Assembly: GCA_052400685.1 (NCBI GenBank)
Contig: JBQTGJ010000020.1
Strand: one strand, 5' to 3'
Length of the DNA stretch: 40,000 nt
Source: Geofilum sp. OHC36d9
GTDB lineage: Bacteria > Bacteroidota > Bacteroidia > Bacteroidales > Marinilabiliaceae
Both the position numbers and the translations under genes were made by a program. The notes below the pieces were generated by a model that worked only from the letters and a program-made list of their open reading frames with translations, was not told where the DNA came from and ran no database searches. Below, in pieces: positions 16,105-28,198 of this stretch (the stretch's first letter is position 1; every line of letters begins with the position of its first letter).

Positions 16105-16881
16105 TTAAAGAAACCTGTAAAGCTTTAAGTATTTTATGTTTACCGCAAAATTTAAATTTGCTTCACCCAAACCTGATGTTGTTATACCAATAACTTCACC
16201 CATCATATTTAATAATGGTCCACCGCTACTTCCATGAGTTATCTCAGTCGTTGTTTGAATTAAACTATTATTCTCTCGAAAAGCTGAAACGATTCCTTTC
16301 GACAGTGTACTTTGCAATCCTCTTGGGTTTCCAATAGCAAATACATCATCTCCAATTTCAGGAATTTGCGAAACGACAGGAATAGGATTTAAAATATTGT
16401 AGCTACCTATATTAACCCGAAAGATGATATAATCATTCTCTTCACTTTTTTCTAATACTTCTTTCACCTTGAATTGCTTACCATCAAGAGTCTCAATTAT
16501 TTCTAACCCTTGTGAAGTTCCCTCAAATACGTGATAATTACTAACGGCTAATCCATTCTTAGACACAAAAAACCCAGAGCCTTGAAATTCATTATTTCCA
16601 TCAGATGTATATACTAGGAATACAGATTTTTTGTATTTATTATAAAGTTCATTTAGAGGTAAAACCTGCCTGACAGTATTTTCTATCACACGAGTTTCAG
16701 TATTTTGGTGTCGTTGTCGGTCTGTTGTATTTGATGAATAGTTTGTTGTAGAACTTGCTTTTTGATGACTACGTCTTCCAGACGGAGAACAACCAGAACA
16801 ACCACTTAACGAATGTAGAGTAATAATAAAAAGTAAACCCATCAGAATATTACCTACAACTTGATATGTCCTATTCTTCAT
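16105..16881 (-). CDS. Trypsin-like serine protease lipoprotein (S1C/Trypsin_2-like, no PDZ)
   Basis: Lipobox LHSLSGC, then an S/T/N/R/Q-rich linker. Catalytic triad context: SNYHV, ENDYIIFRV, THGSSGGPL. 11-nt overlap with the upstream gene. Confidence 0.8.
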   Translation of the reverse strand: MKNRTYQVVGNILMGLLFIITLHSLSGCSGCSPSGRRSHQKASSTTNYSSNTTDRQRHQNTETRVIENTVRQVLPLNELYNKYKKSVFLVYTSDGNNEFQGSGFFVSKNGLAVSNYHVFEGTSQGLEIIETLDGKQFKVKEVLEKSEENDYIIFRVNIGSYNILNPIPVVSQIPEIGDDVFAIGNPRGLQSTLSKGIVSAFRENNSLIQTTTEITHGSSGGPLLNMMGEVIGITTSGLGEANLNFAVNIKYLKLYRFL

Positions 16882-17491
16882 TATTATGAATTTTGCCCAT
16901 TTTAGGTATTATGTGAATAAGGAATTGTTGGTTTTTATATTCATCTTTCCCAGAATATTCCCTGATTCCTTCGGTACCACTACCAGAAATTTGAATTTCA
17001 CAATCTATCGCATTAAAGATTATACCATTTGATTTCCAAAAGCGATAAAGAGACAAAGCCCTTTCATAGCTAAGTTCGTAATTGCGTGAATAATTATCTT
17101 TCGATGCCATACCTTCAATTACAACAAGATACTTAATATCAAATTTCTCAAAATTCTGCTGATTTTTAAGCTCAGTTATTAAATTCGAAATAGAATTACC
17201 CACTTTAATTAAATATTTATAATATTTGGGGTTGATGTAAGAACTGCCACTCTGAAATTGAATTTGCTTATTTAATTTGAAGCGTTTGTATTCTGGTTGG
17301 TATTCAAAATACTCTTCTGGCAATTTTTGAACGGCAATATGTAATTCTTGAATTTTTACTAGTTGTTCCTTAATATCCTCGATGTTGTACTTTAAATACC
17401 CAATTGTAACGACAAATAGCACAAGCATCACAAAAAACAGACTTGTCATCAAATCAGAATAACTTATCCAAAAAATATTATCCTTTTTCAT
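16871..17491 (-). CDS. MotB/ZorB-like protein 2 (TM plug with conserved Asp plus OmpA-like C-domain)
   Basis: FWISYSDLMTSLFFVMLVLFVV (compare MotB [21 protein letters not shown]). C-terminal NYELSYERALSLYRFWKSNGI...ISGSGTEG is OmpA-like. TAATG overlap with the upstream gene. Confidence 0.7.
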   Translation of the reverse strand: MKKDNIFWISYSDLMTSLFFVMLVLFVVTIGYLKYNIEDIKEQLVKIQELHIAVQKLPEEYFEYQPEYKRFKLNKQIQFQSGSSYINPKYYKYLIKVGNSISNLITELKNQQNFEKFDIKYLVVIEGMASKDNYSRNYELSYERALSLYRFWKSNGIIFNAIDCEIQISGSGTEGIREYSGKDEYKNQQFLIHIIPKMGKIHNNEE

Positions 17492-18210
17492 TAATTCGAT
17501 CTATTTTGGACTTTCGGAATAATTTGAATAGAAAATCGTTTGTTATTTTCTTCTAAATTATCTCTGCATAGGCCATTAAAGCCACTACCACAAAGCATTA
17601 TTTCAGTATTGTATTTCCGCAGATCGATGTTGTTTTTGTTCCATAAATCATACACGGCTAATGCTCGCTCGAAGCTCTTTTTATAACCATATTTATTGTC
17701 AACACTATAAGATCTATCATAAGTATTTGCCATATTTCCTTCAATGACTAATAAATATGATAATTCAGGAGTTTTCATATATAGATCTTTCAGAAAATCC
17801 TCTATTTCATAGCCAATATTTATAGTAGTACTTACAAACTTTCTTTTTATAACCGACTTATTAGGTTCAAAAATTTCTTGTCCAAGTAGATCTTTAACTA
17901 GGTACTTTTTACAATTAGGAAGGTAAATAAACTTACCGCTTTCTTCTAGAGGTTTAAATTGTTCTTCAATTTTCAGTAATTTATCTTGTTGTTTTACTGT
18001 AATAATTAATTTTTCATTGGCGGTTTTAAGTTCTGTTATAAGTGTTTCTGTTTCCTGCTCTTTTTCTCTCAACTGCGTAATTAATTCTTCATTGTTAAAC
18101 ATTTGGTTTTTTAAATAACCTATTGTAACGACAAATAGCACAAGCATCACAAAAAACAGACTTGTCATCAAGTCAGAATAACTTATCCAAAAAATATTAT
18201 CCTTTTTCAT
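17491..18210 (-). CDS. MotB/ZorB-like protein 1 (TM plug, coiled-coil linker, OmpA-like C-domain)
   Basis: The N-terminal 34 aa are identical to the paralog. A coiled stretch follows (QLREKEQETETLITELKTANEKL), then KKSFERALAVYDLWNKNNI...LCGSGFNG. Confidence 0.7.
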   Translation of the reverse strand: MKKDNIFWISYSDLMTSLFFVMLVLFVVTIGYLKNQMFNNEELITQLREKEQETETLITELKTANEKLIITVKQQDKLLKIEEQFKPLEESGKFIYLPNCKKYLVKDLLGQEIFEPNKSVIKRKFVSTTINIGYEIEDFLKDLYMKTPELSYLLVIEGNMANTYDRSYSVDNKYGYKKSFERALAVYDLWNKNNIDLRKYNTEIMLCGSGFNGLCRDNLEENNKRFSIQIIPKVQNRSN

Positions 18211-26449: not shown

Positions 26450-26899
26450 TTAAAAAGGTAAGTGAATTTGGATTTTGCTGAATTGCTTTAATATTAAGCT
26501 ATAAATAAAACCAACAACAATGCCGAGCAAACCATTGAATAAAGCATATTCAAATGGTAATGTTTTGGCAAATTCTTCATAACCTGATTCAGGATATGCT
26601 AATGCATCAATCAGATCCTGGTTGTTTGATAAGAATATTTCATTATTCGAAATACCCCAAGAAATGCCTCCAGTTAACAGGGATGCAATAATTAACCATA
26701 AAAACCAATGCCGGAATTTCCCATAAGGAGATTTCCATAAATAATAGAAAGCAGCGAACAATATTAATGGAACGAGTACAAAAGTCAAGCCTAGTAGAGT
26801 ATAGCCCCCGGAATCATATAAAGTGTTAAAAATCAACCCAAATTGAGGGTCGTACAGGTTAAACAAAGACTCATAAATAGTTGCGAAAAGGTCATTCAT
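26450..26899 (-). CDS. Small membrane protein (about 3 TM)
   Basis: Hydrophobic segments GYTLLGLTFVLVPLILFAAFYYLW, WFLWLIIASLLTGGISW and LFNGLLGIVVGFIYSLIL. Confidence 0.55.
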   Translation of the reverse strand: MNDLFATIYESLFNLYDPQFGLIFNTLYDSGGYTLLGLTFVLVPLILFAAFYYLWKSPYGKFRHWFLWLIIASLLTGGISWGISNNEIFLSNNQDLIDALAYPESGYEEFAKTLPFEYALFNGLLGIVVGFIYSLILKQFSKIQIHLPF

Positions 26900-26905
26900 A
26901 ATACT

Positions 26906-28198
26906 TTATTTAATAAGTTCAAACTTAAAGGTGACAATGTTAGATTCTTGGTTTTTATATTGATAAGCTTCACTAATTGCATTAATTAGGAACTTAAAAC
27001 CGAAAGTATGAGAGGTGTCTCCGACAATATCACTTTCATCATCACTGTTTGTTTCCACAATCCAATTTGGAATCGTGTTTTTTAAAGAAATTTCGAGTTG
27101 ACATAATGGACTTCTCTCTGTCCCAACCGTGATTAGATGAGTCGGGGTGAAGTTTAAACCAAAAAGTTTTATATCACCTATTTCAGAAACAGCTTTAATT
27201 GAGAAATTTGAATTATCACATATATAATTATCAACTGATGTGAGATAGGAATCTGAAAATGGCAACGCAGAATAATCTGTTGCTAATGTAAAATGGAAAC
27301 CTTGTCCCTTTCTATCTGATTTTACGCTAACCAATTTATTTCTATCTCTTTTGTCAAATCTAAAATCACCGACTTTGTTATGTGCAACGGCCTGATACGG
27401 AACCTCCAATTCACTGTTTTTTAAGAATCTAGCGACATCAGAAAAGCCTTTAAGGCTTTTAATATAATCATCGTTGAAATATTCATTTAACAATTCGGTT
27501 TCACCAAAAATCCAAACATAAAAAGGTCTGTCTTGCGATAATATTTTGACACCACCTGTAACAGGGAAATATTTTCCATCAAAATGAGATTTCAACTTTA
27601 TGATAATTGTTTGTAAATCACCTGTATTTAATCTTTCAATAAAACGGCTTCTTGTTTCACGTCCTTCTGTTGATAGCGCATTCATTGGCGCTTGAGGTTT
27701 ACCAATATCGTAAATAGCATCTGAAATTAGAATTGAAACAGTATCGTTTTTTGCGCGAGATAGAGCTAATTGAAACATTAAGTTGAGATTACTTTTAGTA
27801 ACGTCACCACAATTAAAACCTGTCAAATTTAATTTGTCTTTCAGGTAAGCCGGATTATTTCCAATATTTGTAATTTTTATTTTTTGCCCACCATTAACAA
27901 AATAAAATTCCCGTTTTGTATTTTCTTCCGCAAAACGAGGTTTTTCTGCTAATTCTGAAACAACGTCAACATATTCAGTAAAACCATTAACGTATCCAAA
28001 CATACTTCCTGAATTTTCTAAATAAAATACTGCTTTCTCCACATTCCTTTCCATAGAAGCGTTGGACGCATTTTTAACAAAACCTATTTGGTTTTCTGTT
28101 TGTTTTTTGGTTTCAGAATTACTTAATCTTTCACTTCTATTTTTACAGCTTGAAGTAAAAATCAAAAGAATAAGAATCAGGTAAAAGTAGAATCTCAT
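26906..28198 (-). CDS. Lipoprotein with von Willebrand A-like domain (degenerate MIDAS)
   Basis: Lipobox LLIFTSSC. AVFYLENSGSMFGY (compare DxSGS with E for D), GDVTKSNLNLMFQLAL (MIDAS Thr position), VSILISDAIYD (compare TDG). The first gene of the operon. Confidence 0.45.
   Translation of the reverse strand: MRFYFYLILILLIFTSSCKNRSERLSNSETKKQTENQIGFVKNASNASMERNVEKAVFYLENSGSMFGYVNGFTEYVDVVSELAEKPRFAEENTKREFYFVNGGQKIKITNIGNNPAYLKDKLNLTGFNCGDVTKSNLNLMFQLALSRAKNDTVSILISDAIYDIGKPQAPMNALSTEGRETRSRFIERLNTGDLQTIIIKLKSHFDGKYFPVTGGVKILSQDRPFYVWIFGETELLNEYFNDDYIKSLKGFSDVARFLKNSELEVPYQAVAHNKVGDFRFDKRDRNKLVSVKSDRKGQGFHFTLATDYSALPFSDSYLTSVDNYICDNSNFSIKAVSEIGDIKLFGLNFTPTHLITVGTERSPLCQLEISLKNTIPNWIVETNSDDESDIVGDTSHTFGFKFLINAISEAYQYKNQESNIVTFKFELIK

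Follow-up and report, generated by a model that had tools for sequence, protein, structure and literature searches.

Genes for tubulin-like proteins beside MotA-like and OmpA genes have been known since 2010, and combinations of tubulin, HSP70 and von Willebrand factor A (vWA) proteins have been known from predicted conflict systems since 2020. Here we describe a ten-gene operon of Geofilum sp. OHC36d9 (Bacteroidota, Marinilabiliales), located at positions 16105-28198 of a 40,000-nucleotide stretch of DNA, which was analysed as a whole and will be referred to as the window. The operon, with its genes numbered g1 to g10 in the direction of transcription, brings together three engine families, namely tubulin/FtsZ, actin/Hsp70 and the 5:2 ion-driven stator, in one tightly conserved and common gene cluster. 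In view of the two earlier reports the novelty is lower than a preliminary description of the window had implied; literature searches yielded no paper on the combination of tubulin, ASKHA (actin/Hsp70-like) and stator proteins.

The closest described gene clusters are the FtsZl1 operons. FtsZl1 is a protein of ~1000 amino acids (aa) consisting of an N-terminal tubulin-like domain, a long coiled coil and an alpha-helical C-terminal domain. The supplementary table of Makarova and Koonin (2010) gives for Deinococcus the order hypothetical protein (~420 aa), hypothetical protein (108 aa), FtsZl1 (1070 aa), MotA/TolQ/ExbB (411 aa) and OmpA (200 aa), and for cyanobacteria the order vWA, FtsZl1, B7 (~530 aa) and MotB/COG1360; some neighbourhoods additionally contain serine protease Do (COG0265) as well as a giant protein resembling DnaK. 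In the Geofilum operon, a divergent tubulin-like GTPase likewise comes after an exported or membrane protein of ~400 aa and a second, small protein; next to appear are a helical-tailed MotA-like protein and its OmpA/MotB partner, and orthologues of the GTPase g3 match the Tubulin_2 family (PF13809). The MotA-like protein of the D. deserti FtsZl1 operon matched the hidden Markov model (HMM) of g6 with an E value of 2.6e-12, and D. deserti FtsZl1 matched PF13809 over its full length (1.6e-69). Because of these two matches the system is, as judged from protein families, a relative of the FtsZl1/Tubulin_2 operon class, and the kinship raised as a caveat in the preliminary description was thereby borne out. 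The g3 family HMM did not detect D. deserti FtsZl1, and hhalign comparisons of the g3, g6 and g4 alignments with D. deserti FtsZl1 and its MotA-like neighbour resulted in probabilities of ~0-2% (2% for g3 versus FtsZl1), the one-sequence template being too weak.

There are nevertheless differences from FtsZl1 operons. With 497 aa, g3 lacks the coiled-coil and alpha-helical C-terminal domains and thus the ~1000-aa architecture; the operon adds a separate 1116-aa ASKHA protein, a bitopic membrane protein (g5) and a cassette of exported hydrolases to the FtsZl1 core, and a Ser/Thr kinase or P-loop GTPase is absent. Both kinds of operon are known from their genes alone, and in a 2023 survey of the tubulin family the Tubulin_2 proteins were still an uncharacterised outgroup. 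The function of the present system, once worked out, would be the first role for the FtsZl1/Tubulin_2 branch, a question open since 2010.

The second system for comparison is Zorya, of which the ZorAB part is described as an established anti-phage sensor motor (PMC11946911). Like Zorya, the operon encodes an A subunit (g6) of ZorA-type architecture with ZorA as its best structural match, and B subunits (g8 and g9) which match ZorB models and carry an invariant Asp and an OmpA-like end. In contrast to Zorya, the g6 tail comprises ~290 aa, compared to roughly 500 aa in E. coli ZorA; the stator is accompanied by a tubulin-like GTPase and an ASKHA ATPase, the periplasm instead of the cytoplasm is the place of the candidate effectors, and the window copy contains two different B paralogues. 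A Zorya subtype was rejected, as ZorC, ZorD, ZorE, ZorF and ZorG were unmatched among the ten proteins (PADLOC, NCBIfam). The preliminary description had allowed for an already characterised system; the locus is absent from PADLOC beyond its resemblance to ZorA and ZorB. Taken as a whole, the system is probably related by descent to FtsZl1/Tubulin_2 operons and mechanistically closest to Zorya, and its analysis would test Zorya-type motors as general signal transducers wired to varied cytoplasmic partners.

Kaur, Burroughs, Iyer and Aravind (2020) described the tubulin, HSP70 and vWA combinations as threshold-regulated conflict systems with nucleoside triphosphate-dependent multimers, defined by GAP1-N2/DO-type TRAFAC GTPases and fibronectin type III (FNIII) proteins and found in Firmicutes and Actinobacteria; MotA-type stators are unmentioned in that paper (PMC7159879). 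The Geofilum operon resembles these systems in encoding tubulin- and HSP70-superfamily proteins with an exported protein, which here is vWA-like at the motif level only, and differs from them in that FNIII proteins and GAP1-N2/DO-type GTPases are absent. A Kaur-type GTPase-centric system was rejected, as P-loop GTPase families were unmatched by all ten proteins.

Organisation and conservation of the operon

Ten intact open reading frames (ORFs), all on the minus strand, run from 28198 to 16105. The junctions from g1 to g10, calculated from the ORF coordinates, are +6, +10, +1, -8, +1, +1, -1, -1 and -11 nt. Since the gaps and overlaps between the ten ORFs amount to only -11 to +10 nt, the arrangement is most naturally read as one transcription unit. 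A scan for promoters and terminators was uninformative, with 54 sigma-70-type sites compared to 58.8 expected, and the consensus used may not be that of the host; promoters of Bacteroidota depart from the sigma-70 consensus. The G+C content across 16-28 kb was 0.29-0.35, while most of the flanking kilobases showed 0.40-0.52. Thus, the ORF layout and junctions of the preliminary description were reproduced exactly from the coordinates, its by-eye impression of an AT-rich block agreed with the calculated values, and each of the motifs quoted in it was found in the translations of g3, g4, g6, g8 and g9. Two proteins in the NCBI database are 100% identical to products of the operon, ACT3CD_14815 to g4 and ACT3CD_14805 to g6; an exact search with the g3 protein returned nothing.

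To examine conservation, 99 related loci were fetched and their ORFs labelled by means of profiles, built in iterations, for each of the ten proteins in the operon. The order g1-g2-g3-g4-g5-g6-MotB was kept in essentially all of the ~60 loci that were long enough, and persisted down to g3 identities of 31-35%. The conserved neighbourhood which the preliminary description had proposed to look for in other genomes was present, and as far as gene order can tell, it is a system rather than a coincidence.

The conserved core is opened by g1 (26906-28198, minus strand), a 430-aa lipoprotein with the lipobox TSSC and Cys18. Homologues of g1 were detected 93 times among the ORFs of the 99 loci, every one of them in first position. 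The g1 family retains E61-x-S63-x-S65 and D160, the latter invariant, in a pattern that recalls a metal-ion-dependent adhesion site (MIDAS; DxSxS...T...D in vWA domains). The preliminary label of g1 as vWA-like was not upheld by profile searches: none of 36 g1-family members matched a VWA family in Pfam at E<0.1, and a PDB profile search with g1 returned nothing relevant and no vWA support, leaving a resemblance at the motif level only. The second core gene, g2 (26450-26899, minus strand), encodes an integral membrane protein of 149 aa with three hydrophobic helices that matches no known family. It was found 97 times in the 99 loci, with g1 and g3 always on either side.

The NTPase pair, the stator and their membrane partners

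The gene g3 (24946-26439, minus strand) encodes the 497-aa GTPase of the tubulin/FtsZ superfamily. The protein contains a T1-type motif, GIGGTGS, within IFGIGGTGSRV (residues 7-17) and a T4-type motif, GGTGAAG, within FGGTGAAGFP (residues 190-199); G11, G12, G14 and G191-G192-T193-G194 are invariant in the family. Matches of g3 to Pfam remained below the gathering thresholds (GA). Tubulin (PF00091) was matched with E 1.1e-5 and 26.3 bits versus a GA of 33, residues 4-208 aligning on profile positions 1-137 of 190, and Tubulin_2 was matched by residues 9-50 only (E 7e-4, 19.3 bits versus a GA of 27). Among 47 diverse g3 relatives, Tubulin was matched by 42 and Tubulin_2 (E<0.01 for PF13809) by 37; judged on these family profiles, the sub-threshold tubulin signal is systematic. 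An orthologue from Gloeothece, detected by the g3 family HMM at 7e-51, reached 40.8 bits with PF13809 and thus exceeded the GA, and several close g3 homologues have precomputed PF13809 matches. The recurring matches of g3 in the PDB profile search were weak and limited to CetZ/FtsZ over the GGTG loop. Assignment to the tubulin/FtsZ-like GTPases, as originally made from the motifs, agrees with these profile results. The family is uniform in length (465-535 aa, fusions with g4 excepted), shows 66-90% identity across host families, and is large: clustering at 90% identity gave at least 4025 proteins and clustering at 50% identity at least 1765 clusters, every member being annotated as hypothetical.

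The adjacent gene g4 (21594-24944, minus strand) encodes a protein of 1116 aa with a C-terminal ASKHA ATPase domain (~545-1040), which is preceded by an N-terminal half (~50-540) without an assigned family. The phosphate-1 motif DFGTTNT is located at residues 554-560 and the phosphate-2 motif DIGGGSSDIAVF at residues 769-780. An alignment of 40 g4 sequences revealed invariant residues in phosphate-1 (D554, G556, T557, T558), in phosphate-2 (D769, G771, G772, G773, D776) and in the adenosine motif (S919, G920, K924). The AlphaFold2 model of g4 (pLDDT 84.8, pTM 0.75) had 620 Foldseek matches in the PDB at E<=1e-3, with the nucleotide-binding domain (NBD) of DnaK (E 6.5e-9), MreB, BeeR and actin on top, each at probability 1.00. 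A two-lobed, RNase-H-like ASKHA fold is supported by this model, in line with the actin/Hsp70-like ATPase that had been read from the motifs. The fold assignment is based on structure because sequence gave no useful match: a profile search of g4 against the PDB resulted in no significant match, and Pfam FtsA (PF14450) matched weakly over the phosphate-2 region. Pfam HSP70 did not match g4, and the arrangement of Hsp70 chaperones, in which the NBD is followed by a substrate-binding domain and lid, was not found. Residues 1-45 of g4 are predicted to be disordered yet are highly conserved, which suggests that they might serve as a docking peptide.

A tubulin-superfamily GTPase gene adjoining an ASKHA ATPase gene recalls the FtsZ-FtsA pair. 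Unlike FtsZ and FtsA, however, g3 and g4 lie below the family thresholds and g4 carries an unrelated N-terminal half of ~540 aa; furthermore, the genes are mobile and sporadic and are located among lipoprotein and stator genes instead of in a dcw cluster. Two natural g3-g4 fusion proteins were found (P0169, 1658 aa; P0361, 1558 aa). Since they join the two proteins in one chain, these fusions are strong evidence from sequence that the two nucleoside triphosphatases (NTPases) act as one unit.

The A subunit of the stator, g6 (18691-20223, minus strand; 510 aa), is ZorA-like and contains the signature motifs LGLAATMIGIIFGLF and AMLGSLSGLACTTY. It is composed of a first transmembrane (TM) helix, a small domain with beta structure, another two TM helices with the conserved motifs PLYLGLxxTMxG and AMxxSxxGLxxTT, and a helical tail of ~290 aa. 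The predicted model is of moderate quality (pLDDT 66). Its top four PDB matches in Foldseek were all ZorA (8qyd, probability 0.99, E 3.8e-3), ExbB and TolQ coming next, and the top 35 structure matches consisted of ZorA, ExbB and TolQ only. The window g6 itself matched neither PADLOC nor Pfam MotA_ExbB (PF01618), and a profile search against the PDB gave no significant match. Of 44 g6 orthologues, 28 matched MotA_ExbB, all sub-threshold (best 5.4e-4), 14 matched PADLOC ZorA1 (best 4.5e-8) and six ZorA2 (best 1.9e-11); ZorA3 was also matched. The earlier reading of g6 as a MotA-like protein with a helical tail is consistent with these findings. A flagellar stator was rejected, as g6 is a ZorA-type A subunit without a PF01618 match and no flagellar gene was present among the scanned flank ORFs.

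Two genes encode ZorB/MotB-like B subunits, g8 (17491-18210, minus strand; 239 aa, paralogue type 1) and g9 (16871-17491, minus strand; 206 aa, paralogue type 2). The plug motif FWISYSDLMTSLFF is present in both, the ZorB1 model of PADLOC matched g8 with E 1.8e-12 and g9 with E 1.5e-16, and the channel Asp (D13) was invariant in 54 of 54 B-subunit family members; the NCBIfam ZorB1 score was ~26 bits compared to a cut-off of 400. In g8, a coiled coil follows the plug/TM segment with Asp13, and the OmpA-like end is divergent, while g9 contains an OmpA-type peptidoglycan-binding domain (Pfam OmpA, E 1.8e-5, 25.4 bits versus a GA of 27.2). Thus, both proteins correspond to the MotB-type proteins with OmpA-like ends that had been proposed. 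Overall, g8 and g9 share 38% protein identity. The first 100 nt of the two genes (18110-18210 and 17391-17491) are 97% identical while the remainder has diverged, which suggests gene conversion of the plug/TM segment. Most loci contain one B subunit, either of the g8 or of the g9 type, and few, including the window, contain both; the g9 type is the commoner paralogue, and the g8 type is the sole B subunit in loci such as L003. The near-identity of g8 and g9 over their first 100 nt fits a model in which both serve one g6 pentamer, and a heterodimeric B axle (5:1:1) is a possibility for the window copy.

Between g4 and g6 lies g5 (20225-21601, minus strand), encoding a 458-aa bitopic membrane protein with a signal peptide, a variable periplasmic N-terminal domain, a TM helix (~205-232) and, in the cytoplasm, a coiled coil plus a C-terminal domain. 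Conservation is restricted to this cytoplasmic C-terminal domain of ~110 aa. The gene is the fastest-evolving one of the core, with 31-50% identity where g3 keeps 66-85%, and is duplicated with two to four copies in six loci (L002, L036, L060, L061, L063 and L071). Variability and duplication fit a predicted sensor-like behaviour. A profile search of g5 against the PDB resulted in no significant match. In contrast to the core genes, g7 (18210-18689, minus strand; a polytopic membrane protein of 159 aa that matches no known family) has only six homologues, all in the closest relatives, and is therefore regarded as an accessory gene.

The presence of these parts might also be explained by a housekeeping envelope machine, either an energiser similar to Tol-Pal or Ton or an accessory of division, gliding or adhesion. 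In Myxococcus Agl-Glt, a TolQR-like motor is described as combined with MreB, with a GTPase and with the vWA lipoprotein CglB (PMC9946355). The present system would share with it a stator powered by the proton-motive force (PMF) and an actin-like protein, as well as the GTPase and the outer lipoprotein; as in Agl-Glt and Tol-Pal/Ton, an envelope-spanning machine with a 5:2 PMF stator coupled to outer-layer proteins is predicted here, and the very strong conservation of g3 across families would suit such a role. Homology to these machines is, however, limited to the stator superfamily, TolA/TonB-like and Glt proteins are absent, and the present system is mobile and carries hydrolase cassettes. 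Its sporadic distribution with neighbours differing from genome to genome, its low G+C content, the repeats bracketing the window locus and a swappable nuclease/protease cassette without a role in motility or division all argue against a housekeeping machine, which we regard as very improbable.

Exported hydrolases and a predicted conflict function

The last gene of the operon, g10 (16105-16881, minus strand), encodes a 258-aa lipoprotein with the lipobox LSGC and an HtrA/DegP-type protease domain (Pfam Trypsin_2, E 1.5e-24), in agreement with the trypsin-like serine protease that had been noted. No PDZ family matched g10 and models of Do and DegS covered only residues ~50-250, which places the protein outside the full HtrA/DegP definition. 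Comparison with the related loci demonstrated that g10 is one member of a swappable cassette of exported hydrolases located 3' of the stator. Besides trypsin-like lipoproteins such as g10, the cassettes contain retropepsin-like aspartyl protease lipoproteins (PF13975, 1.3e-14), transglutaminase-like proteins (Transglut_core, 1e-9), nucleases of the SNase (PF00565, 7e-19) and Endonuclease_NS (PF01223, 7e-59 and 7e-48) families, and a small membrane protein (DUF6804, 4e-24 to 5e-26); in the Psychroflexus copy the trypsin domain is fused to SNase. Cassettes were counted in the 39 loci with at least 1.5 kb beyond the B subunit. One or more hydrolases followed the stator in 31 of them, a protease being encoded in 27 and a nuclease in 17, and in most loci at least one cassette protein carries a lipobox.

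The preliminary description had stated that no nuclease was present. This applies to the window, where the protease is the only candidate effector, and does not hold for the relatives, in which exported SNase or Endonuclease_NS proteins are encoded beside the protease. An IS21 element lies ~900 bp beyond g10, at a place where a nuclease gene is often found in relatives, for which reason a nuclease gene may formerly have been located 3' of g10 in the window copy as well. Conflict systems are usually recognised by a constant core combined with an enzymatic cassette that can be swapped, to which the predicted extracytoplasmic location of the enzymes adds an unusual trait.

Two further features of the cassettes were observed. 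The DUF6804 membrane protein is encoded just 3' of the hydrolase cassette in about ten loci (for example L005:20010-20309, L026:13934-14233 and L071:11872-13284); the L071 copy is part of a fusion with a longer protein, and the window has none. An immunity or accessory factor might be represented by this protein. The trypsin-type (g10) and retropepsin-type lipoproteases, whose folds are unrelated, share the motif C-S-G-C-S-x-S-G directly behind the lipobox, with a basic stretch after it (L012:10592-11149, L026:13195-13773, L011:10981-11523, L076:20275-20805 and L038:17861-18376), and this shared motif may serve both types in docking or sorting.

Makarova and Koonin (2010) predicted membrane remodelling or vesicle biogenesis for FtsZl1 operons. 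A membrane-remodelling or export machine has consequently to be weighed for the present operon, in which the NTPases would deform the inner membrane and the PMF-driven stator would pass the force outward, resulting in vesicles, protrusions or a release route. The lipoprotein hydrolases would in this way be delivered outward for feeding on extracellular protein and DNA, for biofilm remodelling or for attacking neighbours. NTPases of cytomotive type do occur here together with many membrane proteins, every candidate effector is an exported hydrolase and none a cytoplasmic toxin, and many of the hosts are polymer-degrading or predatory Bacteroidota (Saprospiraceae, Cytophagaceae). In Bacteroidota, however, an acidic signal after the lipoprotein Cys is typical for surface export, and the lipoproteins lack it, the residues around the Cys reading S-G-C-S-P-S-G-R-R. 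Moreover, no secretin, type IX secretion signal or cargo-recognition domain was seen, a hypervariable and duplicated g5 better fits recognition, and the patchy distribution, the association with mobile elements, the low G+C content and the defence genes in the flanks speak against an export machine. We consider this explanation unlikely, although it is the main rival of the one we favour.

We predict instead that the operon encodes a conflict or defence system at the cell envelope with periplasmic effectors, a reading to which we assign about an even chance of being correct. Points in its favour are the identities of the parts, the conserved synteny, the g3-g4 fusions, the variable cassette, the sensor-like traits of g5, the surroundings with mobile elements and defence genes, the anti-phage role of ZorAB and the conflict function predicted for the tubulin, HSP70 and vWA combinations. 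In such a system, five g6 subunits would surround a peptidoglycan-anchored, ion-conducting g8/g9 dimer, as in the 5:2 stator ZorAB. The helical tail of g6 would reach into the cytoplasm and, jointly with the cytoplasmic g5 domain that is conserved, couple the stator to the g3-g4 NTPase assembly, which could act as a nucleotide-gated switch or as a polymerising amplifier. The variable periplasmic domain of g5 would sense an invader or envelope damage. The output would be local activation or deployment of the periplasmic lipoprotein proteases and nucleases, directed against the envelope-crossing proteins and the DNA of the invader, as in phage ejection machinery or conjugative transfer. Experiments can directly address the conserved Asp in the B subunits, the g3 G-box and the phosphate-1 Asp in g4, and can make use of the effector cassette because it is swappable.

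Several observations weigh against this envelope conflict function. Its weakest point is that extracytoplasmic effectors leave the need for cytoplasmic NTPases and the direction of the signal unexplained. The cassette is not obligatory, as a recognisable hydrolase was not found after the stator in 8 of the 39 loci, and neither is the stator, as the stator profiles matched no ORF of a related cyanobacterial plasmid locus (L101, see below). Matches in PADLOC-DB 2.0.0 were limited to ZorB, plus ZorA for some g6 orthologues. Tubulin models align only with the N-terminal ~210 residues of g3 and end before T7. Finally, the survey of flanking genes was carried out without a genome-wide baseline, so that enrichment in defence islands is not statistically established.

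A more specific form of the conflict reading is a new class of periplasmic immune system, in which a rotary stator of ZorAB type and a fused or paired tubulin/ASKHA couple, gated by nucleotide and PMF and triggered by hypervariable g5 receptors, would direct exported hydrolases to destroy the trans-envelope channel and the DNA of the invader before this DNA enters the cytoplasm. This form is tentative and, in our view, possible rather than probable. If true, it would represent periplasmic immunity by exported nucleases and proteases and the first instance of immunity in which a 5:2 motor is linked to cytoskeletal NTPases.

Distribution, mobility and genomic setting

Hosts of the operon were found among Marinilabiliales, Bacteroidales, Flavobacteriaceae, Saprospiraceae, Cytophagaceae and an oral Prevotella, and the tubulin-like protein also occurs in human-gut Bacteroidota. 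In addition, cyanobacterial plasmids carry homologues of g1, g3, g4 and g5. On the Picosynechococcus plasmid NZ_CP016489.1 (L101, 6216-16563), homologues of g1, g3 and g4 were accompanied by three g5-like paralogues; on the Gloeothece plasmid NC_014503.1 (L100) only the g1, g3 and g4 profiles were matched, the record ending soon after. To judge from these plasmids, a stator is apparently not required for the existence of the tubulin/ASKHA module. Eleven copies (L089-L099) were located on IMG/VR contigs, which are classified as viral, and one of them has a Mu-type portal gene in its flank; they may represent prophages, integrative and conjugative elements or wrongly classified islands.

The plasmid copies raise the question whether the operon might serve the mobile element itself, either in entry or surface exclusion of competing conjugative elements or phages for an integrative and conjugative element or plasmid, or as a partition apparatus similar to TubZ or ParM. 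TubZ, which is tubulin-like, and ParM, which is actin-like, occur on plasmids and are precedents for such an apparatus, and copies of the operon are found on cyanobacterial plasmids, beside integrases and relaxases, and in the eleven IMG/VR matches. A role in segregation would nevertheless leave the peptidoglycan-anchored stator, the lipoproteins and the exported nucleases unexplained, and no centromere-binding adaptor resembling TubR or ParR was seen in family scans of the ten proteins. Many copies are, furthermore, located in ordinary chromosomal settings, and the exclusion variant is a sub-case of the envelope conflict reading. On balance, a function for the mobile element appears improbable.

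The genomic neighbours of the operon were different in every genome, and the G+C content of the core was below that of the flanks in 23 of 28 other loci. Among 148 flanking proteins from 49 loci, seven tyrosine integrases and two relaxases were detected, as well as type I restriction-modification subunits, AbiEi, PtuA, HipA and several PADLOC candidate families. An integrase adjoins the Psychroflexus copy. These surroundings fit carriage in islands and mobile elements. Low G+C content, bracketing repeats, insertion sequence (IS) and intron neighbours, differing contexts elsewhere and flanking integrases together bear out the horizontal acquisition that had been proposed at the outset; the ten-gene operon is real and horizontally acquired. 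A prophage was rejected, as the window contains no tRNA gene and a scan of ten flanking ORFs matched no phage family.

A direct repeat of 186 nt on the plus strand brackets the operon, the left copy (15668-15853) being 99% identical to the right copy (29207-29392); no match at all was obtained in 100 shuffles. The segment between the repeats comprises 13.35 kb and contains the ten operon genes only. A third, diverged copy (66% identical) is located at 953-1138, and related repeat pieces are found near both ends of the window (868-994/29123-29249 and 1320-1429/28844-28953). The 186-nt pair may represent att-like insertion scars or a dispersed element resembling a miniature inverted-repeat transposable element.

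The IS and intron debris and the repeat clusters mentioned in the preliminary description could be assigned. On the 3' side of the operon an IS21-family element (12720-15199) with terminal inverted repeats of 42 nt carries istA (12805-14373) and istB (14404-15129). Two group II introns follow in tandem on the minus strand, together spanning 9675-12122. One of them contains a reverse transcriptase/maturase ORF (10402-11652; Rfam domains at 10302-10377 and 12008-12122), and the second copy lacks an ORF (Rfam domains at 9675-9750 and 10133-10255).

Further features of the flanks were noted. An extra fragment of the IstB C terminus is located at 15363-15500. On the other side of the operon, a minus-strand ORF (29385-30395) adjoins the right repeat and encodes a domain similar to the type VI secretion effector TseH (PF25218, 4.7e-42) together with a C-terminal DUF6695 domain; beyond it, TANGO2, DinB and AhpC-type genes are found.

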